DNA of 64,000 nucleotides, from NCBI GenBank assembly GCA_964016885.1, contig OZ024743.1:236716001-236780000 (forward strand). The letters run 5' to 3'. This document shows, piece after piece, positions 24,072 through 48,000 of the stretch. The first letter of the stretch is position 1; the number at the start of each line of letters is the position of its first letter. The position numbers were made by a program, and so were the translations under genes. Under the pieces are notes generated by a model. The model searched no databases. It was given only the letters and a program-made list of their open reading frames with translations, and had not been told where the DNA came from. The stretch is from Eledone cirrhosa (taxonomy: Eukaryota).

Positions 24072-24116
24072 TTGATTTTTCGAAGCAGATTAGGAAAATC
24101 TGCTTCGTAAAATCAA

Positions 24117-24212: not shown

Positions 24213-24255
24213 CAATAAATTCCATTCGTCGGAACACTGATTCTCTTTTTTTCTG

Positions 24256-24340
<85 letters not shown>

Positions 24341-24495
24341 GAAACACACAGATACATGCGGACACACACATATACATGAATGCATCCACACCCAACCGTG
24401 AGTTAAGGGTGCCAACTTCACCGATGTTGCTCAATGAATGACTGGGACAGACCAATAGTGTTGAACTAGACTGAACCAGTATCAGAGTTAAAAAT

Positions 24496-26583: not shown

Positions 26584-26796
26584 ATACCGCAAAGTATTTT
26601 GTCTGATGTTCTAATACTTCTGCCAATTAACCAAGCGGTGTTTCATAATCTTGGCATACCATCCAGTGTATATAAATTCCAGCTTTGACATGACTGTGAA
26701 TTCTTTAGTTTTAGTCAAAGACAAGGAAGCTAAAGACAATGTGGTTAAATGCCCCTCCTCCCACCACTACCACCACTACCTCCATCACATATTCTA
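26584..26796 (-). mobile_element. degenerate R4/Dong-like (RLE-type) LINE fragment, downstream part: zinc knuckle and RH region
   Basis: Minus-strand translation with frameshifts: RICDGG..FNHIVFSFLV/LTKT/IHSHVKAGIYIHWMVCQDYETP...EHQ, resembling CRxC..ETIxHIVSGCxxLAxxEYxxRHxxVxxYIHWxxC...WYEH. Confidence 0.7.
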
Positions 26797-26990
26797 GCCG
26801 GCGGATTGGATTATTTTCCGCCGTTTACACGGGGCCTCCCCGAAGGAAGCTAGTTGGCGGCGTGTTGTCGTCGCGTCGACCAAGCTACTCCACGCTGCCG
26901 TTCGGGCGTCGTCATCGGCGGCTGGATTCCCCTGCAGCCAAACGGGTCGGAGGCGGCCAACTGGGCACGCCTTAAAGGCGGAACACGCAT

Positions 26991-27062
26991 CGGAGGCGGA
27001 GGGCGGAGCGGAGGCGGAGGGCGGAGCGGAGGCGGAGGGCGGAGCGGAGGCGGAGGGCGGGC
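26991..27062. repeat. 18-bp G-rich repeat (GGAGGCGGAGGGCGGAGC) x~4 in IGS unit 1
   Basis: Direct; absent from unit 2. Confidence 0.9.
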
Positions 27063-27228
27063 GTTAACGTGCAGGCGGGGCGGACGAGTTCTAGACGGCA
27101 TGTCGTTCGAGGCGGAGACATCCAACATAGCATAGGGTAAGCCGGCACGTACCCGTCTTGAAAACGGAATATTCACGACTCTCAACGGGTAGCATCCGGA
27201 ATCGTTTTCTTCGAGCTCGCCCGATCAA

Positions 27229-27262
27229 GCTTACCCTATATAATAGACAGGACCCCCTGGCC
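27229..27262 (-). promoter_or_regulatory. putative Pol I spacer promoter (+1 ~27237)
   Basis: Minus strand GGCCAGGGGGTCCTGTCTATTATATAGGGTAA, identical to the motif ahead of the 5'ETS; TATATAGGG-type initiator. Confidence 0.65.
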
Positions 27263-27846
27263 AGGCTGCAAAACCCGTACTCGTTGGTATTCCCCGCAGG
27301 CGTTTCGCAACCCTACGGGTCGGCGGCGGTTCCGCGTCGCCGGCGAGTTGCGAACTTTCTCGCGATCGAAGCGGGAAGACGAATAAAGGAACGTTTGCCG
27401 GGTTCGAGGCGGAAGACGGAAGGCGTCGTGTCGCGTCGGGGAACTTCGCCTCGCGTCACGTATACACGCCTCTTGCCGTCTGTCTTTCCCGGCAGCTACT
27501 CGTAAAAGTACGGGTCGGCGCCGGAACCGCCTAGCCGGCGGATTGGATTTCTTTCTGCCGTCTACACGGGGCCTCCCCGAAGGAAGCTAGCTGGCGGCGT
27601 GTTGTCGTCGCGTCGACCAAGCTACAACAGGCCGCCGTCCGGGCGTTGTCATCGGCTGGATTCCCCTGCAGCCACACGGCTCAGAGGCGGCCATCTGGGC
27701 ACGCCTTAACAACGGAACACGCATCGGAGGCGGAGACATCCGACATCACATAGGGTAAGCCGGCACGTACCCGTCTTGAAAACGGAATATTCACGACTCT
27801 CAATGGGTAGCACCCGGAATCGTTTTCTTCGAGCTCGTCCGATCAA

Positions 27847-27880
27847 GCTTACCCTATATAATAGACAGGACCCCCTGGCC
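27847..27880 (-). promoter_or_regulatory. putative Pol I spacer promoter (+1 ~27855)
   Basis: Same motif as 27229-27262 and 44104-44135. Confidence 0.65.
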
Positions 27881-28185
27881 GAGTAAGCATCGCCATAGCC
27901 GATCGTATTCCCCGCTACCAACTCGCAACCCTACGGGTCGGCGGCGGATCCGCCTCGACGGCGGATTGATTACTTTCTAGCGATCGAAGCGGGAAGGCGT
28001 GGACGAATAAAGGAACGTTTGCCGGGTTCTAGGCGGAAGACGGAAGGCGTGTGTCGCGTCGCGTAACTTCGCCTCGCGTAGCCTATACACGCCGTCATGC
28101 CGTCTGTCTTTCCCGGCAGCTACTCGTAAAAGTACGGGTCGGCGGCGGAACCGCCTAGACGGCGGAATGGATTTCTTTCCGCCGT

Positions 28186-28545
28186 CTACACGTAAAACAT
28201 AACTTGGAAGACGGACGACGGATGGGCGGCTTGTATCACACACAGACACACACATACACCACACAGAGGCCGGCTACACGTAAAACATAACTTGGAAGAC
28301 GGACGACGGATGGGCGGCTTGTATCACACACAGACACACACACACACCACACAGAGGCCGGCTACACGTAAAACATAACTTGGAAGACGGACGACGGATG
28401 GGCGGCGACGACGTGTAACACACAGACACACACACACACACAGACCGCCTACACGTAAAACATAACTTGGAAGACGGACGACGGATGGGCGGCGACTACG
28501 TGTAACACACAGAGATACGCAAAACTAATCAACTCGGAAGACGGA
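28186..28545. repeat. ~88-bp IGS subrepeat x4 downstream of 28S
   Basis: CTACACGTAAAACATAACTTGGAAGACGGACGACGGATGGGCGGC at 28186, 28274, 28362 and 28449. Confidence 0.93.
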
Positions 28546-28924
28546 TCGGCGGCACTCGAACCAAGGCTGTGTCGCATTCACCGTGGACTCTCTTTTTTCG
28601 ATGCTAATCGACTTTGAGGGTCGTTGGCGCAACCTGGCAAACGAGCGGCGAGCGAGATCGTCGTAAAAGTTGGCGCGCGGAAAGTGGTTGGTGGTTGGTG
28701 GTTTGCAGTAGCAGCGGCGGAACTGTTAAAAGAATGGGCTAAGGCCCGCACGGACGGACGGAGCGGACTTGTTTGTATGTCGTCGTCGTTGTTGCTACGC
28801 TAACCCGTCGAAAGAAAGCCGCGTCATTGCTCCAACCCGGTAGCTGCTGCTGCTATCTCTCGTTCGTTCGTTCCTTAGCCGCTTTCGAATTTCTTCTTTT
28901 TTTGTTCTTTTGCCTGCCGCCTCG

Positions 28925-29477
28925 GTGGGCGGATCGTGTCGTTCGTGAGAAGAGACTCAATAGATCGCAGTGTGGTAGCTGCTCTACTAAGCACGTCACT
29001 CCGAACGGCAAGTCGAGTCGTATACAAGCGATCCTTTTCGTCTCGATCTCTTTCGACAAATCGAACGGACGACGACGACGACGAATCGTCGTAATCGTCA
29101 CAGAATGGCAATTCCGCTGACGCTGCCGCCGACGACGACGCGCACCCCGAAAAGGGAAGCGACTTCGCCGAACGGACGGCAATCGCCAAACTAAGGCATG
29201 CGCCTTAAGAAGGTTGAGACGCTTTCGAAAAACAACTCGGGTCCGGCTACGGTTCCGGCTTAGAGGCGTTCAGCCGTTATCGCTCAGAGGCAGCCTGGCA
29301 CTACCGCTCTATCGAGCGAGCGCGCAAACCGTTGCTCTGATCCCGCGGTTCCTCTCGTACTGGACGGGATAGCCGTAGCCGAGTTGACGTTGCCGGCGGC
29401 GACGCCGACCGCAGCCGCCTTCGAGAAGGTGGCTGTAGCCGCCACCACCGCCGCCTACACGCAATGCATCGGTAGGA

Positions 29478-29514
<37 letters not shown>

Positions 29515-29566
29515 AACGTTCCTTGTTAGTGGGTGAACAATCCAACGCTTTGCTAATTCTGCTTCG

Positions 29567-29604
<38 letters not shown>

Positions 29605-29627
29605 GACGTCGCTGCGAACGCTTAGCC

Positions 29628-29670
<43 letters not shown>

Positions 29671-30208
29671 CGGCGGACGCATAGCTCGCCGCTATTCGGA
29701 AAGGATCGATGGGCCACGCTTTCGCGGTCCGTATTCGTACTGAAAATCGAGATCGAGTGAGCTTTTGCCCGTTTGCTCAACGTGTGGTTTCCGTCCACGC
29801 TGAGCTCGCCTTGGGACACCTGCGTTACCCTTTGACAGACGTACCGCCCCAGTCAAACTCCCCGACCGACACTGTTCTCGACTAAGGGTCGCGCATCGGC
29901 TGCGTCGGCGCACAACGTGTGCGCGCGCGACATGCACCGCACGCTTCGCACCAGATAAATGAACCACCGCTCGGCGACGGCCCCGTCCCTTCTCAATCGA
30001 GTGAGCAAAGAAACTACGGAAGTGGCGGTTTTTCATCGACGCAAACGCGCACGGTACCCGACAGACGGCGAACGCCGCCGCAAAGCCGCCGCAAAGCCGC
30101 CGCAAAGCCGCCGCAAAGCCGCAAGCGACCCGCAAACGACGCTGCCGCCTGCCGAGAGACGCAAGATTGCTCCCGCCTATGCTACGCCTACCGTGTGCCC
30201 TCACAAAA

Positions 30209-30248
<40 letters not shown>

Positions 30249-30364
30249 CGATCCGTCCAAGCCCGTTCCCTTGCTGTGGTTTCGCTAGACAGTAGATAGG
30301 GACAGTGGGAATCTCGTTGATCCGTTCATGCGCGTCACTAATTAGATGACGAAGCATTTGGCTA
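28925..30364 (-). rRNA. 28S rRNA, 3' part (downstream of R2 insertion)
   Basis: Sense strand starts TAGCCAAATGCTTCGTCATCTAATTAG; contains CAGAAAAGTTACCACAGGGATAACTGGCTTG, GGTTTAGACCGTCGTGAGACAGGTTAG and the sarcin-ricin loop AGTACGAGAGGAAC; terminal CTGCGATCTATTGA near 28960. The 3' end is approximate. Confidence 0.95.
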
Positions 30365-31024
30365 TTTTAGCTAGCATTTAACAAGTGCTTTTTTCAAAGC
30401 ACGAGACGCTTTTCCCTATTTTTATATGTGGGTGGTCCCACGGCCAACGCCATTTAGCTCAATATGGCATGAATGGTGTGCCGATGTCAATCCGGTAGGT
30501 ACCGACCGCAGTTCAAACCGCTCACCGGCCGTGGCAGAATTATCATGTCACGCCGACCGCAATTCGATCCGCCATCTGTCAATCCAGTATTTAAAACCCA
30601 ATAAACTAAAATAAGGTGGTCGTGCAGCGCTCGACCACCCCAAAAAAAAGAAAAAAAAATGAGACCGCTCCACGAGACCCAAGTTTCCCACTCTCCTATT
30701 CAACATTCAATTAATAAGTTTTAATAACCAACAAAATAACAAAAATAAAAACACAGACGCGTAACCCTGCAACGGGGGGTAAAGGGCGTGCTAACGTGAA
30801 CCCACCACGAACGCCCGGACTCGCGGAGCCGGCGGAGTCGTCTTACTTCTCCTTCACTCGGATTTTCTATCCGACCGCTTACCGGGTTAGTTTAGTTAAT
30901 CGGAATTAGGAAGAGTGGACCCGGGCTCTAACGCGCGCGCAAAAAAAAAGAAAAAAAAAATCCGAGGCAATCATCCCCCGAACCCAGTATGGGCCCATAC
31001 AAGAGGGGAGCAGACGACAATCAG

Positions 31025-34000
31025 TCAAAGCGAGAGGGAGGGCTCCCAGCCGACCCTCCAGCCAAGGCGCATGGATTCGTCCGCTATCAGTTGGCACAGC
31101 TGGTCATGCCGGGCCAGTCGCTTTCTCTTGAGAAGAGGGCACTGGCCACTGATATGGGCGATTGTCTCCGCGGCCGTTCCACAACGTCGGCAGGTCTTAT
31201 CACCGCGACCGCCTCTCGCCAAGCATTCCCGGGTGGGAAACGTATTAGTTCGCAATTTGAGACAACTCAAAAAGGTCCCCTCAGAAACCACACCCGGGCG
31301 GAGCAACCAATCGTTGCCGATTCGGTCACCCCGGAACGACCCCGCACACGCCCCCTGGACGGGCTGGGAGGCCCAGGCCTCGGCGGCCTGCCGTCCAAGA
31401 TCGGGCGCGTACGTGGACGTGCCCGGCGGGACCGGAGGCAGCCCATAACGTAACGCTATCTCGCTGTTCCGCGTAGCGAGGCCCGCCGATTCCGCCATGA
31501 GACGAACCGCGTCATAACGAGAGACTAGCAAACAGAGATTCTTACGAATCACGATGGATGGGATTAACTTCGCCAAATGGCAAAGACCCAATCCACCGTC
31601 CCGCTTGCTACAGTACAAGAAGGAAACCGAGGTCGACACATGCAGATGCATAATCCTACGTGTTCCCGCGCGAATCGCCGCGTCTAGCTCCTCGAGTTTA
31701 ATCCGGCTAGGCATCACCTGCACCAGACTGTAAAACAATCTAGGCAGGTAATACTGTTGTAGCAGATGGAATTTCTGCTGGGGCTTCAGTGGAGCACAGC
31801 AAATCTTATCGACACACTGTGACACCCGCTCCACCGAAACTTTCAACTCGAGGTTTGACCACGGGCCGACACTAACACCTAAGTAAGAGCATTTCTCTGC
31901 AGGGTCGATTCTCAAGAGCTGAATACCATCAATCTCAGGGGCGGAGTCCGTGTTGACCAAGAAAGACTTCCCCCACGCTTTAATCGAGAAGAAGGCGCAT
32001 TTGGAGACATTCACTGCTAGCCCCATCTCCCGGTAGAAAGACACACACCTGTCAACTAGGCGCTGCATCTCCACCGAAGAGCCGGACACCAGAGCATTGT
32101 CATCCGCGTACGCCAAACTCGACAAACCCAACTCTCCAATTCATAAGCCACAGTCGTTGGATAAAGCGTCCAACAGCGGATCAGTGGCAATGTTGAAGAG
32201 AAGGGGCGAGAGGGCATCTCCTTGCCGTACTCCTCGCCTGATCGAGATGGCTCTGCTCGTTTCCTCTCCGACCGAGAATTTTGTGACACAGCCCTCGTAC
32301 AGACCTCTCACGACTTCGACCATGTGTTCGTGAAATCCAAGTCTTCTCATGCCCGCAAACACGAGTGAGTGCGGGACAGTATCGAAGGCCTTGGCAAGGT
32401 CCAAGAAGGCCACGTTCAACTGCCGAATCCTCGATCGAGCTAGCCCACCCCTAGTGCGAGCGATTAGTTGCCGCAGTAAAAATAAATTCTCACTGCAGCC
32501 GTCCGCATTAATGAACCCTCGTTGAGCCGGGTTCAGGGGTGTTACCTGAAGCATTCTTTTAGAGAGAATCCTGGTGTATAGACGATACACGGCAGAGCAT
32601 ATCGTCAGGGGTCTCCAATTTGAAATGTCGATCGGACCGTCCATCTTTTTGCGAATGAGGACTGACCTTCCTTGCTTTTCAAGATATCGGGAACTCTCCC
32701 GGCTAGCAGCAAACAGTTAAATAGGTTCACTAGAGTTGCAGGGTCGATTGCGCGTACCTGTTGGGGCGTGATTCCGTCGGGCCTCGGAGCCGAATGCGGA
32801 TCCATACACCTACGCGCACCCACAACTTCGGACACGGTGAACGGCCGCAAAAGCGACTCATTATTCACCACCTCCGTTGCGGGATACGCGCTAAGATCCA
32901 CATCTGGTCCAGGGACGGAGAATCTCTCTTCGTAAGCAGACGCGATGTCCGCCATCGGGACAGGACACACCCCCTGCATCTCTTCGCCTAAAATTACTGT
33001 AAGGAGCTTCTTCCTGTCTCGGTCATACAAAAACTGGTAGCGAGCGTAGAGCAGACTCTTTTCACTCTTTCTACCAGTTTTCTTATAGGGCCTTTTAAAT
33101 CTACTCTTTTTCCGTGTATTTCGCGCTCTACCACGCCCTCTGCTCGAGCGCACATTGTTCACCCATTCGTCGACAAACCCGGCGAACGCATCCCAGCTCT
33201 CATCCGTGATCTCATCACAAAATGTGACAAGACACTCGGCAAAAGCGGCGGACCATCGAGAGCGCCCAGGCTCCACCGCCTCGCCAAACAAGTTCCTCCA
33301 ATCGTTATCAGAGGCAACCGGGATGGACGCTCCACTCGGCTGGCTAGGCGGCCGTCTCTCTAACGACCCTGCAGAACGGGTAGGGGACTGTTCACAGTGT
33401 TTTTTTCTATTCCTTAGATCGCTCCTCTTCGAACTAATCTGTTTCACAGTCTTTCCGGGCAGGAAAGGAGCGATCCCAAGATTGACACGACGACACCCCG
33501 CCTTAAGAAGCTCGTCCTCCTTTTCGAGAAGGATCGAAACCTCCTGCTCGGACCAACAACCACGACCAACCCGGGTGCGGGGCTGCCCAGCCCTCTCGCG
33601 AGAGGCTGCAGCAGCACGAGAGGCACGCTTCTTTCCGATCTCCTCCGCGTGTTTCGCGATCCTGCGGCGATTGGCAACCACTGGATGACGATGCCTCTCG
33701 TGCTGTGATCTTCCTGCGACCGTACGGAAGGCACGGTCGCACTCTCCGTACCAGTGGATCAAGTCCGAGACGGCGGGAATATCGTCCCATCTCCTGCCCG
33801 TACATCGGCCCACGTGCACCCGGAACGAATGCAGATGACAACTTTCCCTACCGCATTTGCTACACCTAAAAACTGCCTTTCGCTCATGACAGCGAAGCAA
33901 ATGCTCCGCCCAACCAGACGGGCCCGAGAAATGACGCGAACAGCACGAACAAAACAAAACTACGCTCTTACAAGGAATCTCGAGACAGTCCTCCCCCGCG

Positions 34001-34353
34001 ACCGTTGGCCCAACCTCACATACAAATTCCACGGGGTCGCGCGCGAGCCACGACGGCAGTTGCTTGCCTTTCAAGACCAAAGCGTGGGTTGGGTACTCCA
34101 GAGTAAATTTATCGGGTGTATCCCTACGGACTAGTATAGTCGGTATCTGAATCCTCCGGTAGGTCAAATCCAGTGAGCCGGCGCTCTTACGAGGAACATG
34201 GCCCGGCTCTTTGCCAGTCCTCGGAGACAGTTGCCAATCGCAGAGGGCCATTACAGAACGCTGCGACAGGCCGAAGGGACCTATCCCATTCCCTCCGGCC
34301 ACTGGTTTTTCGGCCCCCAGCTGCCGTTTGGAATTCAAAATATGTGTCATCAT
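31025..34353 (-). pseudogene. disrupted R2 ORF (ZF-ZF-ZF-Myb-RT-CCHC; endonuclease missing)
   Basis: CSCC..HLLRCH, CSKC..HVGRC, YGEC..HERHRH, WSEQE...KTVKQISSKR, APRPDG, NWRPLTI, QRGF, LDLAKAFDTV, GVRQGDALSPLLFN, YADD, YLG, CRRC..ETIAHISGQC, RHD. Frameshift ~32678, in-frame TGA at 32141-32143, ends at GWEPSLSL*. Confidence 0.93.
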
Positions 34354-34519
34354 AATTTAGGCACCAATTAGTTCGTCTTAATGTGGCCGACTAACCGAGA
34401 ATGGTAAAACCTGCCGAGTCAACCCTGACCACCGCAAAAAAAAAAAGGAAAAGCGGGGCGGAGCTGCCTCTCTCGTACAGCTCAAAACCACGGACTTAAG
34501 CTCTCTTCCCACGTCAAGG

Positions 34520-34603
34520 GGTACCTGTAGAGCGCCGCGTCTCGGGCGGCGTCCGGTGCGCTCTCGGCGGCCCTGGAAAATCCGGGTCCGTAACGATTCG
34601 CAG
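34520..34603 (+). other. inverted 84-bp copy of 28S segment 35683-35766 inside the R2 5' junction
   Basis: Reverse complement of 35683-35766 with one mismatch. Confidence 0.95.
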
Positions 34604-34664
34604 AGGTCAACCCTGACCACCGCAAAAAAAAAAAAGGAAAAGAGGGGCGGAAAAAAGGAAAAGC

Positions 34665-34707
34665 GTTACTCCCGCCGTTTACCCGCGCTTGGTTGAATTT
34701 CTTCACT

Positions 34708-34739
<32 letters not shown>

Positions 34740-36723
34740 CGCGTCTATGCGGCTCGGCCGGCTACGCGATGCTCTGTTTTAATTAGACAGTCGGATTCCC
34801 CCGGTCCGTACCAGTTCCGAGTTGACCGTTCGCCGCCGGCCGAACGCCTGCCGCGCGTCTCGGCAACCGCCCTCCTCCTCGCGAAGAAGAAAGAAAGAAG
34901 CTACCGACGCGCCAACGAGCCCGAAGCCGTGTCGCTCCACGGTGTCCCGGGCGTGGAGCCGTGTTGTTCGCGCCCACTACGCATCGAACGTCGCAAAAAG
35001 CGACCGAAACGCCGCTCGCCAACGCCAAGCTAGCGCCTCTCCAAGCCCCCCGTTTCCGACCGACAAAAACGAAGAAAACGAAGAAAAAAAGACGACGACG
35101 ACGCGCGAGCCGCCGGCACTGCGACGAACAGTAAGGAAAGAAAAAAAAACGAAAGAACAAAACAAAAGCGAGCAGAAAACGAAAAAAACAAACCGCCCTT
35201 ACGGGCGACAAGCCTCTCCTGTCTGCTACGCCTTCATCCCTCCTCCGCGGTAATCTTTCAACAACCCCGTCCGCTCCCGCGCGACCAACCCGCAGCCGCC
35301 GCCGCCTTCTTCCTCTCTCTCTCCTCGCCGCCAACCGAAAGAAAGGCAAGGAAAAACGAAACGAACGCAACGAAACGGGCGCAAACCGGCCACCCGACCG
35401 ACGCTCGAACGTCGAGTCCGACGCCAACGCTACAGTCCCGTACCGGTTCACCGCTTCGCGTACAGACGTGCCGCGCGACCGATCCCGAGTTTTTGGAAAA
35501 AAACAAGACGGCCGACAGGCCGACACACACACGGCCCGACCGACCCGGTCCTCGGAGACAATCCTTCTTCCGAAGGTACGGATCCATTTTGCCGACTTCC
35601 CTTACCTACATTGGCGCTATCGACGAGAGGCTGTACACCTTGGAGACCTGCTGCGGATGGTGGGTACGGACCGACTCGAGAGCTGCGAATCGTTACGGAC
35701 CCGGATTTTCCAGGGCCGCCGAGAGCGCACCGGACGCCGCCTGAGACGCGGCGCTCTACAGGTACCATATCCGTATCTCCGGACGAGCCGATTCCACGGA
35801 CGCGGTTCTTTACGAAGAAGAGAGAACTCTTCCCGGGGCTCCCGGCAACGTCTCCGGGCTCGCTTGCGTTGCCGCTGCTTCGCCCGACCGCCGGCTTCGA
35901 TGACGCGACGACGCGTTAAATTCCACCGACGGACGAGCACTCTCCGAGTTCGGGTTCGGGAATATTAACCCGATTCCCTTTCGATGCAAGGCCGGCCGTA
36001 ACAAAAACAGAGAAGAAAATAAAAAACGAATTTTTCAAAATCATTCTCTTTCTCGACAACGGATCCGGCGCCTTTAGTACAAGCTTTCGCCCGCTTCTTA
36101 GGACCGACTGACCCGTGCTCGACCGCCGTTGGCACGGAACCCTTCTCCACTTCGGTCTTCGAAGGTCTCGTTCGAATATTTTCTACTACCACCGAGATCT
36201 GCACCCGCGGTCGGCTTCACACGGGCTCACGCCCGCGGCTTCCGTGCACGCCGCGGCGCCTTCCTACTCGACCAGGCATCGAAGAAAGTTACGTCGTGTC
36301 ACCTTTTTTCGCCTATCGCCTGGCCGGTCCGGCATCGGTCGCTCGCTCCAGCGCCATCCATTTTCGGGGCCGGTCGATTCGGCAGGTAAGTTGTTACACA
36401 CTCCTGAGCGGATTCCGACTTCCGTGGCCACCGTCCTGCTGTCTATATCGACCGACACCCTTTCGGGGATCTAATGGGCGAAGCGTAGGGCACCTTAGCC
36501 GGACGTTCGGTTCATCCCACATCACCAGTTCTGCTTACCAAAAGTGGCCCACTTGGCACCGTGCATTCGTCGCCGAGACGGCGGCCGCCTCCGATCGGGA
36601 GAGAGAGCGGCCCGTTTCGCTCGTTCCGAGTTCGAGAGTAGATCGAGGCCGTCAACGTCCCCGGGGCCTCCAGTCGTTCGCTTTACCGGACGGAATTGCG
36701 TGTCGTTCTGTCTGCTGCTGGCG

Positions 36724-36766
<43 letters not shown>

Positions 36767-38272
36767 CGGCTCGATTGGTCTTTCGCCCCTACACCCGGTT
36801 CCGACGATCGATTTGCACGTCAGAGGCGCTTCAGACTTCCACCAGAGTTTCCTCTGGCTTCGTCCCGACCGGGCGTGGATCGCCATCTTTCGGGTCCCCG
36901 GCCGCCTGCTACACCTGAGTCGGAGCGCGCCGCGCCGGCGGCCCGAAAGCCGCCACGCGACGCGCACACCCGACCCGGGAACGATGCTTCGAAACGCCTA
37001 CGACGGCGCGGAAAAAAAGAAGAAAAAAAACAACAGCGACACCACCCGAAGGCCATGCCGCATGCCGTCAATTCAACCAGCCCCTAACGCCGCCGTCGAC
37101 GACGCGTCACGTTCTCGCTTTCACTTCGCCGTCGGAGTTCGTTAAATTCGATTTCTTTCGCTCCAACGACTCGCAACCGACTGGGACTCCTCGATCCGTG
37201 TTTCAAGACGGGTCGGGTAGGTTGCCGATGCTCGTCGCAGACCTGCAGCAGCGGACGGCTCGCGATCCTCGTCCGCCCAGCGACCCGCTCCCTCCTGCTC
37301 CGCAAAGAGAGCAAAAGAGAAAAAGCAAACGGGGCGAGCGAACGAGGCGGCCGCTTTCTCGAAAGCCGATCAGACATTTTAAGGATATTAAAAAACCAAC
37401 CTAAGCATATACGAACGGCGCTGCGGCTGATAAAGGAACACGCGCGTTTGTCCCGTCCCCGCCTGTTAGCCGTGCCTGGGACGATGAATAAAAACCACTG
37501 CCGAGCGACGGGCCCGGTCGAGAGAAGCGCTGTTTTCGGAAACCCGCTTCGAAAGCGAACCGGGATGGTTCGTTTTCTAGGCGGGACGCCGCTCTGCGAC
37601 CTGCGGACACCGCGCGCCATCCAGCCTGACGGGAACGGGTCGCGACGACGGATCGAAGGGGAAATGCGTCCGATGCCGGCACCCCGCGAATCGTAACGCC
37701 GGCGAGGCGATCGGCGGTCGACTCGTCGAAACGAGATACCGCCGCCGACGCGATCGCCGACGACAACGGCGCCTTAAAACAGCAGCGGACTGAGTCCCCT
37801 CGCGATCGCGGTGAACGATCCTACCCGTTTAACCCCTGGGCGGTTTCACGGTCTCTTGAACTCTCTCTCCAAAGTTCTTTTCAACTTTCCCTCGCGGTAC
37901 TTGTCGGCTATCGGACTCGTTCCGGTATTTAGCCTTGGATGGAGCTTACCACCCGCTTTGGGCTGCGTTCCCAAGCAGCCCGACTCTCGAGCCGAAGAAA
38001 GAGACACTGTCGATCGCCGCTGGCTCCGAATGGGCCTGGCACCCGCTTTGGGCAGCCCCGATCGAGGGGACTCCGAATCTAGCCGGGCGAAACGAACGAC
38101 CGTGTACGACCCTTGTGCCACAGCTCTCGACGACCTGCTTGCGGACGACGAGATTCAGCGTTGGGCTCCTCCCAGTTCACTCGCCGTTACTAAGGGAATC
38201 CCGGTTGGTTTCTTTTCCTCCGCTTAGCGATATGCTTAAGTTCGGCGGGTAGTCGCGTCCGAGTCGAGGGCA
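34665..38272 (-). rRNA. 28S rRNA, 5' part
   Basis: ACCCGCCGAACTTAAGCATATC, GGAAAAGAAACCAAC, CCCGTCTTGAAACACGGA, GTTTCCCTCAGGATAGC, TTCTGCCCAGTGCTCTGAATGTC, ending GGCGGGAGTAAC. Confidence 0.96.
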
Positions 38273-38856
38273 GCTATTCGCATACGCCGAATACGCTGAA
38301 TACGAAGAACGAGGACGGTAAGAAGGCGGCGTCGATAAAGAAGAGACTGGCGATATAGAGTGGGCGCCAATGCGGAATGTGGAAAAGACAAGAGAAATGG
38401 GAAAAAAGAGGCGGCATCGAAATCGTTTCTCGTCGGCCGACACGAACGCTTTGTTTTTGGCGACTCGCAGAGCGAACGCCGGCCGACGAACAACGACCGC
38501 GCCTGTGTTACTGCGTTTCTTTTTACCCTTCTCGTCTTCCCTTCTTCTAAATCTTTCTCTTTCCGTGCGACGATCTCCGAAGCGAACGACGAGAAATAAA
38601 GAAAAATAACGACGAAAAGTGTTAGTTCTTATTTCAATACGGGAGACGGAGCGTTCCGCGAGCGACGACTCTCGCTTCTTCTGCGACTCCCGACTTCCCG
38701 CTGTTACCATGACGCAAAAGAGAAGAGAAAAAGAAAAAAACTGCGCTTCGCTAAGGCGGCAGCGGCAGCGCAAAAGGCGGATGTTTCTCTCTTTCTCTCT
38801 CACTCTCGTGAGCGGGCGGCGCATGGCGAAACAGCAGACATCGCGATTGTATCGTG
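38273..38856 (-). other. ITS2
   Basis: Position between 5.8S and 28S. Confidence 0.85.
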
Positions 38857-39018
38857 ACCGCCTCTCGACCGGACGGGGCCCCGGGACGATGGAATCCCGG
38901 GGCCGCAATGTGCGTTCGAGGTGTCGATGTTCACTGAGTCCTGCAATTCGCATCAGTTCACGCGGATAGCCGCGCTCTTCATCGACGGACGAGCCGAGTG
39001 ATCCCCCGTCCAGGGTTT
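38857..39018 (-). rRNA. 5.8S rRNA
   Basis: GGATCACTCGGCTCGTCCGTCGATGAAGAGCGCGGCTA...GAATTGCAGGAC...GAACATCGACACCTCGAACGCACATTGCGGCCCCGGG. Confidence 0.96.
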
Positions 39019-39523
39019 TGTCATTTTTAAACGAAAACGAAAACGAAAAAAAAAAACACGGTAAAAAGAACGCGAAAGCATAGAAACCAACGGTAGACGA
39101 TGGCGGAGGCGGCGACAGCGACGATATTCACGGGACGTTTTCACGTTCGTTGCGCGCTGCGGTCTCTGCTGGCTGCCTTGCTGCTTCCGCGGGCGAGGTG
39201 AAGAAAATAAAAAGCGCACGTCGAAAAAATACGTTCTCTCGGATACGAAATCGAACAATGCGCGATGTTATCGGCCGAGCGCCGTGCTGGCGCCGGCAAA
39301 AGAAAAATAACGGTAGGAGCGGTTTAGGCGGCGGTAGACGCGCAGTAAGCGATATTGGCGGCGATTTCGCAAACGGCGCTCGCTCCATTTAACGGGTTAC
39401 GCCGTCCGCTAGGCGTCTCCAGATGACGAACCCGACCGTTGTTGTCGTGATCACCGAAGAACGAAAATATAAAAAGGCGGCTTTCGTTGGCGGCGTCGGC
39501 AATAAACGATATTGGATACGCGG
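39019..39523 (-). other. ITS1
   Basis: Position between 18S and 5.8S. Confidence 0.85.
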
Positions 39524-39581
<58 letters not shown>

Positions 39582-39724
39582 AGCGATCGGGTTCGGTCGT
39601 CTTCTCCGGGCCATCAGAGAGCGCACCGACGACGGCAACGAACCGACCTGACGGCCGAATCGAAACGCCGCCGCACGGCCTGCGAACTCGTCGGCCAGAT
39701 CCGAGGACCTCACCGGACCGTTCG

Positions 39725-39767
<43 letters not shown>

Positions 39768-40476
39768 GATCGACGCGGGCTGATGACCCGCGCCTACCGG
39801 GAATTCCTCGTTCACGGGGTTGGTTCCAGGCCCCGATCCCTATCACGGGAGGTGGTTCAGAGGTTTCCCGACCCTCTCGGGCCGGGGGAGTGGCACCCGC
39901 TGTTACCTCCAGTGTAGCGCGCGTGCGGCCCCGGACATCTAAGGGCATCACAGACCTGTTATCGCTCCGCCTCGTGCGGCTTTCTGCCGCCCGTCTCTCT
40001 AAGAAGCGCTGCGTTCGCCAACCGACTGGCTCGGACGCGACGACGTGCCGACGCCGGGGCTGTTCGCGCCGGTCCCCCCCTCCCGAGCCCGAAAAACCGA
40101 CCGCCGCCTCCGCCAGCGCTGCCTTCATTCCTCCATTCCGCAAGCGAACTCGCGAAAGAAGAAGACGACGACGACGCGACGACGACGGCAACGGCAACGG
40201 AAGCCCGAGCTCGAAGAAAAAGGGAAAAAAACCGAACGCAGGACAGCTTACCGACGACGGCTTCGGCGCCGCCACGCTACCGGAAAAGCACTAATCGACG
40301 CGCTAGTTAGCAGGCCGGAGTCTCGTTCGTTATGGGAATCAACCAGACGGATCGCTCCACCAACTAAGAACGGCCATGCACCACCACCCACCGAATCGAG
40401 AAAGAGCTATCGATCTGTCAATCCTACCGGTGTCCGGACCGGGTGAGTTTTCCCGTGTTGAGTCAAATTAAGCCGC

Positions 40477-40522
<46 letters not shown>

Positions 40523-42384
40523 TGTGTTGCAACCATGCTCCCCCCGGAACCGACTATGGTTTCCCGCGCAGGCTCCCCGCCGGGTCATCGAAGCGAACGC
40601 CGGCGGAGCGCCAGTCGGCATCGTTTACGGTCGGAACTACGACGGTATCTGATCGTCTTCGAACCTCCGACTTTCGCTCTTGATCGAGGAAAACGTGCTT
40701 GCCACACGCCGTCGCTGCAGTGCGTCTTGCGACGATCCAAGAATTTCACCTCTAACGTCGCAATACGAGTGGCCCCGATCGCTCCCTTCGATCATTGCCT
40801 CGTCGTGAACGGAGACCGACGGATGACGCGCGGACGAGGCCATTTTCCATCATTCCATGCTTTTCGTATGCAAGCCGGTGCGGCTCGCTCTGAGCACTCT
40901 AATTTTTTCATAGTGAACGTACCGGCCGCCTCGGACACTCGGTAAAGAGCACCCTCGGAGGAACCGTGCGGATCGGCGGCGAAACGGAACGACGCGCGAC
41001 GACAAAACGGCGGCCGCAGGAAAGCGACGCGCCGAGACGACACGACGACGAAACCGGTCACGCCGTCGTATCCAACCCTGGCGACGAACCTCTCCTTTCG
41101 AAAAGAAAAAGGCAAGCGCGCAGAGAGAGAAAAACAAAACCGCGAGGTGAACGCGCGACCGCGGCGAGGTGACGGCACGACGACGTAAGAACCTCTGAAA
41201 AGCCAAGCGAAACGAACTCCAAGCCCTGACCGGAGCGCGGCGACGAAAACGAGAGGCGAACGGCAAACGCCCGCGATAAAGCAAAGCGCCGTCGTCGCAT
41301 CGTCCCCGATCGCGCAAAGGAAAATAGGCAAGAAGAAAGCAAGAAGCGAGGTAAGAAGGTAAAAACGCGACGTCCGCACCGTGACGCCGAGCGGCGATGC
41401 ACGCAGAGCTCTGCGGCCCGACCGCGCACGCACCGGCGAATAGGGCCGGGAGTGCGAACGGACGACCGAAGTCGACGCGCGGCGCGCGAACGACAACGGC
41501 GCCGTCGCCCCGAACGCGCTGACGACGCAGCGCGCTTTCGAGACCCGAATTCTGACTACGAGCTTTTCAAACGCAACAATTTTAATATACGCTACCGGAG
41601 CTGGAATTACCGCGGCTGCTGGCACCAGACTTGCCCTCCGGTCGATCCTCGTTAACGGATTTGAAGTGTACTCATTCCGACCGCGGGGCCTCGACAGAGT
41701 CCCGCGTCGTTATTTTTCGTCACTACCTCCCCGTGCCGGGAGTGGGTAATTTGCGCGCCTGCTGCCTTCGTTGGATGTGGTAGCCGTTTCGCATGCTCCC
41801 TCTCCGGAATCGAACCCTGATTCCCCGTTACCCGTTGCCACCACGGTCGGCACTTACCGGGCCGTCGACAGTTGATAGGGCGGACTCGCGGGGGACCCGT
41901 CGCGCGAAGGCCAGAAGCGATTCTAAGCCCGTGCGATCGTACTGACAGTTATCCAGAGTCACCAAAGTCGAATTGATGCGCGACGCCGCGCAACCGCACG
42001 CAGCGAACTGCGAACGGCGCTGACGGCATCTGACGCGTCGTCGGTCTCAGTCTAATATTTGCGCCGCGACCAATGCGAAGGCCAACCGTGTCGACGCGAT
42101 CTGTTGGGACCGCGTGGGAAGACGGAACGACGACAGCGACGAACGCTGAGCGCGTTTGTAACCCGACTCCCGGGTGCGACCTGCGATCGCGGCCTCAGTT
42201 GCATGTATTAGCTCTAGAATTGCCACAGTTATCCACTCTCCTCACGGTGAGGAATACGGTCCCGAGGATTAGGTCCGGTTCCTGAGCCATTCGCGGTTTC
42301 ACCATTCGTTTACGGCATGAACTTACACTTGCATGGCTTAAGCTTTGAGACAAGCATATGACTACTGGCAGGATCAACCAGGTA
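39524..42384 (-). rRNA. 18S rRNA (2861 nt, expanded)
   Basis: Starts TACCTGGTTGATCCTGCCAGT and ends GTAGGTGAACCTGCGGAAGGATCATTA; GTGCCAGCAGCCGCGGTAA and TTGTACACACCGCCCGTC are present. Confidence 0.98.
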
Positions 42385-44110
42385 TCTTCCGCACGAAATA
42401 CAAAACGACGACCGAGAACAGAAGCGCATGGAGGCGGCAGCAGCGAATTTCGTCTCGTCTCGTTGTAGGCGGAATGAGAAAACGTAACAAAAAAAAAAAA
42501 AACGGAAATGTCGGCAACCGGTCCACGAGCCGGTGGAGGTAAGAAACGAAGAGAAAAGAAGAAGGACGCAGCGCGGCGCGTTTGGCGGCATTTACTCATC
42601 ATCTCTCCCAGATCATCTCCTCTCCCAGCGACGTCGTCGACAAAACGGGCGTATACGAAATCAATCGCCCGCCGACTGCCGGCCAATCGTTTAGTCTTCT
42701 TCCTCCTCCTCGGCGGCGGCGGCGGCGATGAAGGAAAAGAAAAGAAACAAACGAAAACGAGCTCGCAAGACGGTTTACAATCCGATGGCATCGCACGAAG
42801 CCGCTTTCGGAAGCGTTTCCCTGGGCGTAAGTGCGAGCTGAGGCGTGATGCCGGGGCGGCAGCAGCATGCGGCGTCGAAGAAGAGGAGAGAGACAAGTAG
42901 GCGGCTGCGGCGCCCTCCGCTTTCGATTCAACAGCTGCTGTCGCCGTTACTGCGACGGAAAAAGAAATCGGTTCGACATGGCTGCGGAATGCGGTCAACG
43001 GAAGAGAGTTAGGAAGACGACGACGCGAAAAGCGCCGCTGCGTAACCTAACGGCTAGGTATGCCGGGGAAAACTTGAACGACGCCGACCCGATAAAGGCA
43101 GCGGCGCAAGCAGGGACACCCGGACTTGATGCCAGTGTCCCTTCGGGAGGGACGACGCCGCTCTCTTTCATAGATATCGCGTCGCCGTTGGCAAAACGAG
43201 GGTAGCTACGGCTATACCCAAGCCCGCCGCGGCAGTGGCGATGCAACGCGAGGTCAGCGGCATGACCTGACCGGGTCCACGACGAAAAGCCGAACCCTTC
43301 GTCGCAGCAAGGAAGAGTGACGCGCGTCGTCGCCGTCGTAGATCGTCGTCAAACGCATTGCAGGGCATTTAGGCGTTGCTCCTACATTAAAATGACGGCT
43401 ATTACGACGGACGCGTACCTACTGCTGTGACGGAAAGGCGGTTCGGAAGGCGGATAATCGTCGAGGCCGAGGGTCGGCGAGCGAACGAAAAAAAAAAGAG
43501 GCGAGGAGGAAGCGAGGGCGTTCGGCGAAAAGGTTTCAGATTTTTACGCCGACCGGGCGGGAAGGCGTTCGTTTTTTGGCGTCAACCGAGGAGTAATTTG
43601 CGTTGCTCCAGCGGTAACGAACGTCTTCTATCGTGGGTCCGGTCGGGCGATGGCGGCGGTCTGGAAAGGCAATTCTTTTGCCGCGACGGAAGCGCAATCG
43701 AAAGGCGGATCACGAAATGCGGCTAGCCGTCGAAAAGGGAAAAAAAAAAAGAATAGGCGAGGAGAAGGCGGCGCGAGGAGGTTCGGCGAAAAAGGCTTTC
43801 AGACTTTTACGTCGCCCGGACGGGAAGGCGCTCGTTGTTGGCGTCAACCTAGGAGTAATTTGCGTTGCTCCAGCGGTAACGAACGTCTTCTATCGTGGGT
43901 CCGGTCGGGCGGCGGCGGCGGCGGTCTGTAAAGGCAATAATTCGTCGATGGCGGCGGGCACGGGCTGTAACGTGAGGGCGGGTCGTGGACGAGGACGACA
44001 TCGCATATAGGGTATCCGAACACGCCTAACCCGTAACCTACGCAGTAAACCGAAAGCTGCAACGGCTAGCACCCTTCCGTTCACTAAGCTCGTCCGACCG
44101 AGGTTACCCT
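42385..44110 (-). other. 5' external transcribed spacer
   Basis: Lies between the putative Pol I start and 18S; contains a ~155-bp duplication. Confidence 0.7.
43520..43938. repeat. ~155-bp direct repeat x2 in 5'ETS (43520-43672, 43781-43938)
   Basis: Shared GGAGTAATTTGCGTTGCTCCAGCGGTAACGAACGTCTTCTATCGTGGGTCCGGTCGGGCG. Confidence 0.92.
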
Positions 44111-44135
44111 ATATAATAGACAGGACCCCCTGGCC
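44104..44135 (-). promoter_or_regulatory. putative rDNA gene promoter / Pol I start (+1 ~44110)
   Basis: TATTATATAGGGTAA initiator; homology with the IGS repeats stops exactly downstream of this motif. Confidence 0.7.
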
Positions 44136-44501
44136 GAGCTGCATCCTCCGCAATCGTTGATAATCCCCCAAGGGCGATCCGCCGGCCACGGGTCGGCTGC
44201 GGAACCGCCTAGACGGCGGGTTGGCTTCGGTCCCGCTGTCGATGCGGGACCTAGAATGGCTAGAGAGATAGAAGGAGGCGTGTCGTCGGCGAAGCTACAC
44301 CACTTCGCCGTTCGGGCGTCGTCGTCGGCTGGATTCCCCTGCAGCCACCACGGGTCGGACGCGGCCGACTCGGCACGCATCAACGGCGGAACGTTTACCG
44401 GGTACGAGGCGGAAGGCGGAAGGCGTCGTGTCGCGTGTACACGCCGTCTTGCCGCATCTCTTTCCCGGCAGCTACTCGCAAACGTACGGGTCGGCGGCGG
44501 A

Positions 44502-45070
44502 TTGAGTATTATTTCATAAAATACTTTTGGTGGTTTCCTTTGTGGAAGCTGGGAACTTGTGCTACAATTAAGAATCCTTCTCGTCATACACTTCAGTTAT
44601 ACACTTTTCAGCCAATGTTTTGAAGTTTTCCAGTCAACTTCCTCCTTATTCATTCTTTTCAGTTATTGCCAAACGTTTCATCATGACATTCTGGTAATCT
44701 GTTTTTAGTTTAGATTTTAGCTTCATCGCCACTTCTGTCGTTCACCCACATTTTTTCATTTTCTTACTATCTGTCAATTCAGCATCTGTTTTGTATTGGT
44801 TTATTTGAAGATGAAACCAATTTCTTATTTTATTCATGCTTCGTAGCCATTTGTATCAACACTCTATTATTCTTTACTAGGTATTTTTGTAGTTCTACAG
44901 TGGTTATTTTATATTAGGTTTCTAGTTGCATAAGGCACCTGCCTCACTATATTCGTAATAAATATAATGTTTTTACATCTGATGTTGGGTGGTTTAATCT
45001 AAATCTATTAATTTTATTTTTTGTTTAGTCTAAGATAAGTGTCAAGTTAAGAATATTAGAAATGTAGCTT
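44502..45070 (-). mobile_element. degenerate R4/Dong-like LINE fragment, upstream part (post-RT region)
   Basis: Minus-strand translation: NRFRLNHPTSDVKTLYLLRI**GRCLMQLET*YKITTVELQKYL...LKSKLKTDYQNVMMKR...EVDWKTSKHWLKSV*LKCMT/EGFLIVAQVPSFHKGNHQKYFMK, resembling HP..D..RLY..R..GGRGL and WL....LK.ETEG...AAQDQ motifs. Confidence 0.75.
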
Positions 45071-48000
45071 ATTATAGACAGCTACAGTATTAACAATTCT
45101 GTCTAAGTCTAAAGTCTGTCTTATTATAGACAGCTACAGTATTGATTAGTCTGTCTAAGTCTAAAGTCTGTCTTATTATAGACAGCTACAGTATTGATTA
45201 GTCTGTCTAAGTCTAAAGTCTGTCTTGTTATAGACAGCTACAGTATTGACAATTCTCTCTAAGTCTAAAGTCTGTCTTGTTATAGACAGTTACAGTATTG
45301 ATTAGTCTGTCTAAGTCTAAAGTCTGTCTTATTATAGACAGCTACAGTATTGACAATTCTGTCTAAGTCTAAAGTCTGTCTTGTTATAGACAGCTACAGT
45401 ATTGATTAATCTGTCTAAGTCTAAAGTCTGTCTTGTTATAGACAGCTACAGTATTGATTAGTCTGTCTAAGTCTAAAGTCTGTCTTGTTATAGACAGCTA
45501 CAGTATTGATTAGTCTGTCTAAGTCTAAAGTCTGTCTTATAGACAGCTACAGTATTGACAATTCTGTCTAAATCTAAAGTCTGTCTTGAAATAGACAGCT
45601 ACAGTATTGATTAGTTAGTCTAAATCTAAAGTCTGTCTTGTTATAGACAGCTACAGTATTTATTAGTCTGTCTAAGTTTAAAGTCTTTCTTATTATAGAC
45701 AGCTACAGTATTGATTAGTCAGTCTAAGTCTAAAGTCTGTCTTATTATAGGCAGCTACAGTATTGACAATTGTGTCTAAGTCTAAAGTCTGTCTTGTTAT
45801 AGACAGCTACAGTATTGATTAATCTGTCTAAGTCTAAAGTCTGTCTTGTTATAGACAGCTACAGTATTGATTAGTCTGTCTAAGTCTAAAGTCTGTCTTG
45901 TTATAGACAGTTACAGTATTGATTAGTCTGTCTAAGTCTAAAGTCTGTCTTATTATAGACAGCTACAGTATTGACAATTCTGTCTAAGTCTAAAGTCTGT
46001 CTTATTATAGACAGCTACAGTACTGATTAGTCTGTCTAAGTCTAAAGTCTGTCTTGTTATAGACAGCTACAGTACTGATTAGTCTGTCTAAGTCTAAAGT
46101 ATGTCTTGTTATAGACAGCTACAGCATTGATTAGTCTGTCTAAGTCTAAAGTCTGTCTTATTATAGACAGCTACAGTATTGATTAGTCTGTCTAAGTCTA
46201 AAGTCTGTCTTATTATAGACAGTGACAGTACTGATTAGTCCGTCTAAGTCTAAAGTCTGTCTTATTATAGACAGCTACAGTATTGACAATTCTGTCTAAG
46301 TCTAAAGTCTGTCTTATTATAGACAGCTACAGTACTGATTAGTCTGTCTAAGTCTAAAGTCTGTCTTGTTATAGACAGCTACAGTACTGATTAGTCTGTC
46401 TAAGTCTAAAGTATGTCTTGTTATAGACAGCTACAGCATTGATTAGTCTGTCTAAGTCTAAAGTGTGTCTTATTATAGACAGCTACAGTATTGATTAGTC
46501 TGTCTAAGTCTAAAGTCTGTCTTATTATAGACAGTGACAGTACTGATTAGTCCGTCTAAGTCTAAAGTCTGTCTTATTATAGACAGCTACAGTATTGACA
46601 ATTCTGTCTAAGTCTAAAGTCTGTCTTGTTACAGACAGCTACAGTATAGATTAGTCTGTCTAAGTCTAAAGTCTGTCTTGTTATAGACAGCTACAGTATT
46701 GATTAGTCTGTCTAAGTTTAAAGTCTTCCTTATTATAGACAGCTACAGTACTGATTAGTCTGTCTAAGTCTAAAGTCTGTCTTATTATAGACAGCTACAG
46801 TATTGATTAGTCTGTTTAAGTCTAAAGTCTGCCTTAATATAGACAGCTACAGTACTGATTAGTCTGTCTAATTCTAAAGTATGTCTTGTTATAGACAGCT
46901 ACAGTATTGATTAGTCTGTCTAAGTCTAAAGTCTGTCTTATTATAGACAGCTACAGTATTGATTAGTCAGTCTAAGTCTAAAGTCTGTCTTATTATAGAG
47001 GGCTACAGTATTGACAATTCTGTCTAAGTCTAAAGTCTGTCTTGTTATAGACAGCCACAGTATTGATTAGTCTGTCTAAGTCTAAAGTCTGTCTTATTAT
47101 AGACAGCTACAGTATTGATTAGTCAGTCTAAGTCTAAAGTCTGTCTTATTATAGACAGCTACAGTATTGACAATTCTGTCTAAGTCTAAAGTTAGTGTTA
47201 TTATAGACAGCTACATTATTGATTAGTCTGTCTAAGTCTAAAGTATGTCTTGTTATAGACAGTTACAGTATTGATTAGTCTGTCTAAGTCTAAAGTCTGT
47301 CTTATTAGAGACCGCTACAGTATTGACAATAATGTCTAAGTCTAAAGTTTGTCTTATTATAGACAGCTACAGTACTGATTAGTCTGTCTAAGTCTAAAGT
47401 CTGTCTTGTTATAGACAAATACAGTATTGATTAGTCTGTCTAAGTCTAAAGTATTGGCTTATTATAGACAGCTACAGTATTGACAATTCTGTCTAAGTCT
47501 AAAGTCTATATTATTATAGACAGCTACAGTACTAATTAGTCTGTCTAATTCTAAAGTCTGTCTTGTTATAGACAGCTACAGTACTGATTAGTCTGTCTAA
47601 GTCTAAAGTCTGTCTTATTATAGACAGCTATAGTATTGACAATTCTGTCTAAGTCTAAAGCCTGTCTTGTTATAGACAGCTACAGTATTGATTAGTCTGT
47701 CTAAGTCTAAAGTCTGTCTTGTTATAGACAGCTACAGTATTGATTAGTCTGTCTAAGTCTAAAGTCTGTCTTGTAGACAGTTACAGTATTGATTAGTCTG
47801 TCTAAGTCTAAAGTCTGTCTTGTTATAGACAGTTACAGTATTGATTAGTCTGTCTAAGTCAAAAGTCTGTCTTGTAGACAGTAACAGTATTGATTAGTCT
47901 GTCTAAGTCTAAAGTCTGTCTTGTTATAGACAGCTACAGTATTGATTAGTCTGTCGAAGTCTAAAGTCTGTCTTGTTATAGACAGCTACAGTATTGATTA

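Follow-up and report, generated by a model that had tools for sequence, protein, structure and literature searches.

Organisation of the rDNA insert and its flanks

The window, a 64,000-nt stretch of Eledone cirrhosa DNA that was analysed as a whole, contains one complete 45S ribosomal DNA unit, which sits between two satellite arrays, each flank leading into a different satellite. The unit and its immediate surroundings consist of the following features:

26584..26793, no strand: left flank, 39% GC, following a LINE-like 3' end with an AAG tail
26794..44501, minus: single complete 45S rDNA unit including an R2 element, 17,708 nt, with ends 5 nt apart in spacer-repeat phase
26794..27530, minus: spacer repeat copy A, 737 nt, starting at the left junction, with a promoter-like motif at 27232
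27531..28154, minus: spacer repeat copy B, 624 nt, with a promoter-like motif at 27850
28155..28521, minus: beginning of a third spacer copy, followed by an 88-nt repeat (3.6 copies) located downstream of 28S
28929..38272, minus: 28S rRNA gene, Rfam model positions 1-3401, interrupted by R2
30365..34664, minus: R2 retrotransposon in 28S, 5' limit approximate
38859..39017, minus: 5.8S rRNA gene
39524..42384, minus: 18S rRNA gene, 2,861 nt with large expansions
42385..44104, minus: predicted 5' external transcribed spacer (ETS), differing from the major array type of the public contigs by indels and about 4% substitutions
44105..44135, minus: promoter-like motif with the core TATATAGGG, third exact copy, putative gene promoter
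44209..44501, minus: shortened promoter-proximal spacer copy, 293 nt, terminating at the right junction
44515..45067, no strand: right flank, leading into a 52-nt satellite (31% GC over 44502-45067)

No further rDNA was detected in the window, which covers 26.8 kb to the left and 19.5 kb to the right of the insert. At this scale the unit is array-derived rDNA outside a tandem array, as rDNA orphons are. No clear target-site duplication was found at the insert (at most 1-2 nt, a possible TT), and the comparison of the flanks with the spacer revealed neither homology nor a long common sequence. The idea that the flanks are two halves of one coding element was rejected, as they hold no common ORF or Pfam match. 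A motif comparable to the promoter-like one is named a putative promoter in a passage of PMC2590618; the exact scan of metagenome contigs for the motif gave 0 matches. The spacer repeats have periods of 737 and 624 nt. The closing junction of a circle could lie in the shortened copy at 44209-44501.

The 28S gene picks up at model position 2280, which we take to be the usual R2 insertion site, directly after the five A of the R2 3' junction. Four ORF pieces were compared with Pfam, which placed the reverse transcriptase domain RVT_1 in two of the three pieces of the R2 ORF, and 51 relatives, one of them named R2, are 25-40% identical along residues 60-1037. The ORF carries a frameshift near 32675 and a stop at 32143, and after a further stop at 31027 the last ~115 residues of the relatives have no in-frame match, the C-terminus being out of frame. 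Judged from these lesions, the element is a broken copy whose ORF is not intact through the C-terminal endonuclease. The sequence-only reading had the R2 already dead before insertion, which lacks support, because a neutral decay of 0.8% (95% range 0.02-4.6%) is compatible with the single stop codon in ~2,970 sites and could postdate the insertion.

Phase of the two ends and the scar at the right junction

It had been claimed that the two ends of the insert lie in the same phase of the spacer repeat and that joining them restores the repeat minus about 5 nt, and the formal alignment agrees with both points. The last bases of the insert (44388-44501) fall on 27388-27525 and 28012-28149, while the first bases, from 26794, fall on 27531 and 28155 onward, so that exactly 5 nt (ACCGC) are missing against both internal spacer copies. 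Over its 114 nt, the right-end segment shares just 74% identity with the internal copies and has a 25-nt deletion. The first internal copy of the motif given in the sequence-only reading begins at 27493, not at 27495, and has one mismatch to it. A match within 5 nt is expected by chance in 1.6% of cases for two unrelated breaks that both fall within repeats (4.9% with three motif variants), in 0.8% over the non-coding part and in 0.2% over the whole unit, all under simple uniform nulls set up after the pattern was noticed.

The right junction carries what appears to be a repair scar, with the following elements:

26799..26805, plus: microhomology of 7 nt that lies 5 nt inside the left end and repeats exactly the final 7 nt of the insert (44495-44501)
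26806..26816, plus: likely filler template, at edit distance 2, with no equally good place elsewhere in the insert on either strand
44502..44514, plus: probable templated filler of 13 nt (11 A/T), a near copy of 26806-26816

An exact repeat of 10 nt starts at 26799 and 44495. The 13-nt tract is at edit distance 2 from the continuation of copy A and 4 to 6 from the other three copies, and 26806-26816 is the sole place in the insert at a distance of 2 or less. Only 2 of 13,593 13-mers of the flanks score equally well, one of which is the tract itself. The null probability of the scar is 0.0001-0.002 for lengths of 10-16 nt and 0.027 for 20 nt, the length having been picked after looking. The copy is imperfect, with two extra letters and exact tracts of 3 and 7 nt; a polymerase-theta templated insertion would be expected to share 3-30 identical nt with the DNA beside the break. 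No templated filler was found at the left junction (score 0; longest match 10 nt, within background).

Templated insertions of the direct-repeat type are described in part of PMC7165422 as short, AT-rich and primed at a microhomology within 15 nt. The tract studied here is likewise short and AT-rich, a direct near copy from beside the other end, and its priming microhomology (7 nt, 5 nt inside) lies within 15 nt of the break. It differs in its two extra letters, in a primer whose 7 nt are many for a round that was aborted, and in a template located at the far end of a 17.7-kb insert. On this sequence evidence the scar looks like an aborted polymerase-theta joining of the two insert ends, and because of this likeness both ends were likely free together. 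This suggests that the ends met at the time of insertion; it does not amount to a single break, because the ends of a linear piece can also anneal.

Array continuation and junction depth in public contigs

Four of the eight listed public runs were used, namely the contigs of X3 and X4 and the RAD runs X6 and X7; the other four were X1 and X2 (shares 0.17 and 0.16), X5 and X8. X3 and X4 are one sample, which may be the source of the assembly, and 623 identical nt point to the same species as the window. Past 44501, seven X3 and seven X4 contigs, among the rows listed, give the 5 missing nt and then the left-end sequence, with 22 of 25 letters (X3) and 21 of 25 (X4) identical to 26794 onward, counted by eye in those rows. 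A long unique spacer between the ends would have spoken against the sequence-only reading, and over the 30 visible letters of array continuation there is none. The ends of the insert are thus neighbours in the source array, as they are in insertions of extrachromosomal circular DNA (eccDNA).

The right junction is bridged by one contig in each run (709 and 685 nt), covering 44438-45060 with 0 differences, of which 64 nt belong to the insert and 559 nt lie beyond the junction. The X3 contig extends leftward with 11 letters unlike the window. The mean depths of the junction contigs, 145.5 and 95.9, amount to 3-4% of the depth over the ETS and to 13-23 times the median of seven low-depth contigs in each run; at face value they would imply many copies. 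However, the two-run arithmetic predicts a depth of 134 under inflation by abundant terminal words and of 106 under uniform depth, compared with the observed 145.5. The junction depth is therefore probably inflated by such words and does not fix the copy number; an estimate of ~20 junction copies was set aside as unproven. Probably, the insert unit exists in one or few copies. An empty site with contiguous flanks was not found among the loose-end rows listed in the public contigs.

In X3 the window differs from the high-depth ETS contigs at 37 of 863 nt, in X4 at 37 of 893 nt, and because of these differences the insert is not a collapsed copy of the main array. By sequence, the unit is distinct from the present major array type. 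Window-type ETS letters occur only at a depth of ~6 and in one of the two runs (X3), where a contig at depth 6.4 is without the major letter at 10 of the 11 sites among those listed in 42570-42612. At 42733 the window letter appears in 0 of 46 RAD reads, which have few distinct starts; the RAD runs X6 and X7, with starts at 42869 and 44375, contribute ~1 read or fewer to the junction bin and are uninformative there. The array differences lean towards G/C in the window (46 vs 31 in X3, p 0.11; 49 vs 30 in X4, p 0.04), which is not how a decaying copy should drift and counts against the captured-circle reading.

Origin of the insert and comparison with known systems

The best reading, to which we give a probability somewhat above even, is that the unit came from an rDNA circle that was opened once and captured at a chromosomal break. 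Passages of PMC3225859 describe circular multimers formed by rDNA and other tandem repeats. Recombination between repeats would excise a circle of one or more units, and a single break in the spacer motif, which lies 396 nt upstream of the gene promoter, would open this circle with the loss of 5 nt. The right end would then pair, 5 nt inside the left end, with the 7-nt microhomology and copy ~11-13 nt, as the observed scar suggests, which would constitute an aborted polymerase-theta re-closure. Finally, both ends would be joined to chromosomal DNA between the two satellites without a clear target duplication; if the circle had held several units, later shrinkage to one would leave the ends unchanged. 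Of the earlier proposal of a once-opened circle, the phase of the ends and the array running through that phase hold, and the scar adds to them, but the circle itself is not established, because identical ends would result if a chromosomal array broke and exchange followed, or if a single motif were the site of two cuts or stalls. Nor can it be proved from the insert alone, because a circle from a tandem array leaves no new junction. The term "monomeric" lacks support, because a multi-unit insert that shrinks later keeps the same ends.

Without a circle, the motif could be a preferred site of breakage or stalling, which we regard as unlikely. Either two cuts one unit apart released a linear piece, or a broken chromosome end invaded at the start of copy A via the 13-nt likeness, copied one unit and left at the same motif. 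The phase match is equally expected under this explanation, the likeness could be microhomology that was already there, short inverted repeats occur in the motif, variants of which stand at seven places in the spacer, and part of PMC3622299 proposes two routes for yeast, one of them through breaks at a fixed position in the spacer. However, the motif shows no stronger folding than shuffled sequences do (z +0.1 to -0.8 in all six windows across it), by which a strong hairpin at the break was rejected; copying would have to skip several equivalent motifs without stopping, and among the low-depth contigs listed no second flank is joined at 44501. One break accounts for phase and scar just as well if it occurred inside a chromosomal array, where the spacer took up a large block of satellites and flanks, or the array was split by a translocation, and recombination among units then left one unit between the junctions, perhaps in many tandem copies. 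The face-value depth of the junction contigs relative to the ETS and the flanks running into two different satellites agree with this, and the spacers of some butterflies hold satellite arrays of more than 15 kb, as stated in a passage of PMC10257491. We nevertheless consider it rather improbable: either the block must measure 45 kb or more, or the exchange must have taken two steps; the 26.8 kb to the left and 19.5 kb to the right hold no second unit, and the ETS letters of the window are confined to the low-depth X3 sequence and absent from the 46 RAD reads with few distinct starts.

That two unrelated breaks coincided, or that the assembly collapsed or mis-joined an array, is very unlikely. 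Under the most permissive null, coincidence has a chance of up to 5%, the assembly may have been made from the sample of these runs, and read support covers the right junction only; yet contigs of two runs contain that junction, collapse cannot yield the phase match and the unit is not of the major type, and no long sequence shared by flank and spacer was there to mislead the assembler. Hardly credible, in our view, is the movement of the unit in trans by a Helitron-type rolling-circle transposase through cryptic spacer ends. The minus strand of the insert begins with TC after A and ends with CTAG, as in Helitron1 (Helraiser, part of PMC4778049), there is no target duplication, and a 7-bp hairpin (z -3.8) lies close to the CTAG end; random breakage with a loss of 0-10 nt would produce such ends in 0.03-0.11% of cases, a figure not corrected for hindsight. 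In contrast to Helraiser insertions, as that part of the source presents them, the base following CTAG is A instead of T (target A-A, not A-T), the cargo is pure rDNA, and the hairpin (7-bp stem, 11-nt loop) ends 5 nt from the end, vs about 11. Moreover, Helraiser's own left terminal sequence is essential (same source), and the 13-nt likeness would have to be chance. A related, highly improbable idea is that the spacer motif is a dedicated opening site, at which a Helitron-like nickase reads TC and CTAG ends 5 nt apart in every spacer repeat. If this were true, whole rDNA units could peel out and re-insert at other sites as non-autonomous transposons, seeding new nucleolar organisers.

Like rDNA orphons, the insert is array-derived rDNA outside the array; orphons are mostly fragments, whereas here a full unit with promoter-like motifs is present. 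The insertion of circles into the germline is already known as a general process. In the parts seen of bioRxiv 10.1101/2022.06.22.497135 and 10.64898/2026.09.03.749254, circle insertions with permuted order are described, with short end homology of at least 5 bp in 23 of 82 human cases. The captured-circle reading shares with these germline eccDNA insertions a permuted insert, ends that are neighbours in the source and short homology at an end; those screens, as far as described there, kept non-repetitive sources with the new circle junction inside, whereas the source here is a tandem array. A base-level case of circle-mediated insertion of a whole 45S unit was not found in the main-text passages searched, and the passages covered of a human-assembly paper (bioRxiv 10.64898/2026.07.27.740875) and a review (PMC10946416) added none. 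The rDNA loci shift between chromosomes in many lineages, and re-integration of circles is a long-proposed route. In passages of PMC3622299 and PMC10257491, such relocation is a hypothesis, either not shown or inseparable from ectopic recombination. As in that proposed route, a whole rDNA unit lies at a new site beside satellites; here, in contrast, both junctions are at base level and the flanks are without spacer homology. With a complete unit whose two junctions are resolved, whose opening is in phase and which bears an apparent repair scar, the circle idea becomes testable, and capture of a circle with such a scar, if true, would link rDNA relocation to a named repair pathway.

Layout of the rDNA insert and its R2 element

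The insert forms a GC-rich block of 17,708 nt (26794-44501) with AT-rich DNA on both sides. No further rDNA or spacer sequence was present elsewhere within the 64,000-nt window. The main features are as follows:

577-21021, 46-nt satellite, left of the insert
28929-38272, minus strand, 28S rRNA gene (Rfam, full-length)
38859-39017, minus strand, 5.8S rRNA gene (Rfam, full-length)
39524-42384, minus strand, 18S rRNA gene (Rfam, full-length)
45068-64000, 52-nt satellite, right of the insert

The sequence is of animal origin, and its long 18S rRNA gene and flank repeats presumably resemble those of cephalopods. In the Rfam alignment, a base change at 29554, within the 28S gene, disrupts a consensus pair and may be a lesion or a lineage trait. 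A promoter-like motif occurs three times (27232, 27850 and 44105) facing the same way as the rRNA genes; a similar motif of stick insects is termed a putative spacer promoter in the available text of PMC2590618.

In the left flank, the 46-nt satellite is immediately preceded by a CTT tract (496-576) and flips strand at 4765/4766 (arrays 577-4766 and 4765-21021). It is followed by a C-rich, strand-biased repeat array of 1.2 kb (22298-23500), a 35-nt piece resembling which lies directly left of the insertion point (26752-26788). Two near-perfect palindromes, both 97% complementary, were also identified: 23927-24261 (165-nt arms, 5-nt loop) and 24489-24824 (152-nt arms, 32-nt loop).

The R2 element lies within the 28S gene, has a 3' junction with five A and encodes a reverse transcriptase; the element matches 51 relatives, one of them named R2. 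Its reading frame shifts near 32675 and is interrupted by a stop at 32143, and the C-terminus is out of frame. A single stop among about 2,970 sites is consistent with 0.8% neutral change (0.02-4.6%), so the death of R2 could postdate insertion; the claim of the sequence-only reading that the element was already dead at that time finds no support in either direction. The R2 5' region (34520-34603) carries an inverted 84-nt copy of 28S 35683-35766 (98.8% identical), flanked by two 46-nt direct repeats (34418-34462 and 34606-34651, 96%), an arrangement suggestive of template switching where the 5' junction formed.

Phase of the insert ends and the right junction

Joining the insert ends had been said to restore the spacer repeat minus about 5 nt, and alignment to both internal copies gave exactly 5 nt (ACCGC). 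The final 114 nt of the insert align with 27388-27525 and 28012-28149, and its first nucleotides align from 27531 and from 28155 onward. Under uniform nulls, the chance of such a phase match is 1.6% with both breaks confined to the repeats, 4.9% with motif variants counted and 0.2% over the whole unit.

One search found eight runs, four of which were aligned to 42400-45060; two of them, X3 and X4, are contigs from one sample. In seven contigs of each, the loose ends behind 44501 consist of the 5 missing nt and then left-end sequence (22/25 and 21/25 letters), which indicates that array-type spacer continues through this phase. Long unique spacer between the ends was absent from this visible continuation, which covers 30 letters only and may derive from spacer copies other than the promoter-proximal one. 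A single contig in each of X3 and X4 covered 44438-45060 with 0 differences; thus, the right junction is also present in data other than the assembly, of which the contig sample may be the source. Coverage of the two RAD runs (reads of two other samples) stops short of this junction.

The 7 nt with which the insert closes on the right are also found 5 nt inside its left end, and the match extends 3 nt into the right flank, giving a 10-nt exact repeat at 26799 and 44495. The adjoining 13 nt (44502-44514) differ from 26806-26816 by an edit distance of 2 and from the other spacer copies by 4-6, with no equally good place elsewhere in the insert; of 13,593 flank 13-mers, 2 reach this score, the tract itself among them. 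The nulls by tract length were 0.002 (10 nt), 0.0006 (16 nt) and 0.027 (20 nt). As the array consensus departs from the leftmost spacer copy (26794-27530) at exactly these letters, the insert's own left end appears to have been the template. The arrangement matches direct-repeat templated insertion as described in the accessible part of PMC7165422, where a resected end uses a microhomology lying within 15 nt to prime on its partner, and synthesis aborts after a short AT-rich tract has been copied. Judged from these alignments, 44502-44514 is likely a scar templated from the left end, but it could instead be part of the target.

Divergence from the main array and copy number

In the inferred 5' external transcribed spacer (ETS, 42385-44104), the window differs from the high-depth contigs at 37/863 nt (X3) and 37/893 nt (X4), with about 30 gap letters in addition. 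RAD reads carry the major, main-array type at 42733 in 46/46 cases, from few starts. Together, these results show that the unit is not a collapsed consensus of the main array, a candidate ruled out by the ETS differences. The differences skew to G/C on the window side, opposite to the expectation for a decaying copy, and the ancestor of the unit was therefore probably an older or minor array type.

Across 42400-44100, the divergence of about 4% comprises clustered changes and indels, whereas the right flank shows no difference over 559 nt. The segment 43557-43920 attracts contigs of very high depth as well as RAD reads, in the thousands, that fit only in part and have unrelated AT-rich ends; it is likely a dispersed repeat or SINE resembling the ETS. 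The same region contains a 200-nt duplication (43480-43673 and 43736-43938, 85%). Both X3 and X4 hold a low-depth 1.2-kb contig with a diverged promoter-region piece (on 43994-44272, 42 differences/279 nt), probably another, older rDNA orphan.

The right-junction contigs have mean depths of 145.5 and 95.9, the ETS about 3,300-3,700 and the low-depth contigs (n = 7 per run) medians of 6.3 and 7.6; at face value, the junction depth equals 13-23 copies. The between-run depth ratio was 1.52 for the junction contigs vs. 1.11 for the ETS (range 1.07-1.14, 9 pairs). Predicted junction depth was 134 for a low-depth flank with abundant terminal spacer words and 106 under a uniform model. At 10/11 listed sites in 42570-42612, the major letter is missing from an X3 contig with a depth of 6.4; X4 has no contig of this type there. 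A low copy number of the unit is likelier than many copies.

Origin of the insert and comparison with known systems

The best reading, which we consider somewhat probable, is that a circle of at least one rDNA unit was opened by a single break, its two ends would have attempted to re-close, and both would then have been joined into a chromosomal break. Tandem repeats are documented to form circular multimers (PMC3225859, in the part available). The earlier proposal of a captured monomeric circle with a dead R2 stands in part: the likely repair scar strengthens it, the state of R2 adds nothing, and a monomer is not required because later shrinkage leaves the ends unchanged.

Cuts or copy stalls at one spacer motif are an unlikely source: the motif has no stronger folding than shuffled sequences, but the ends of a linear piece can anneal as well. 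An array on a chromosome that broke and then underwent exchange or tandem duplication with a large block is similarly doubtful and, if anything, slightly less probable. We regard coincidence or artefact as very improbable. Helitron-like mobilisation, suggested by a hairpin together with ends reading TC and CTAG, is the least credible, since the A-T target rule, as given in the portion of PMC4778049 consulted, is violated.

According to the accessible portions of the sources, re-integration of rDNA circles is a hypothesis: up to 2013, yeast had given no evidence that they insert at new sites (PMC3622299), and in moths the circle route is inseparable from ectopic recombination (PMC10257491). Among the titles and abstracts listed in a literature search that took in few subscription journals and no supplements, none described a complete 45S unit whose ends are in phase. 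Permuted circle insertions are known in mammals and fish from the available text of two preprints (bioRxiv 10.1101/2022.06.22.497135; bioRxiv 10.64898/2026.09.03.749254). With its phase match confirmed, the insert would be a well-resolved new case of a known process.
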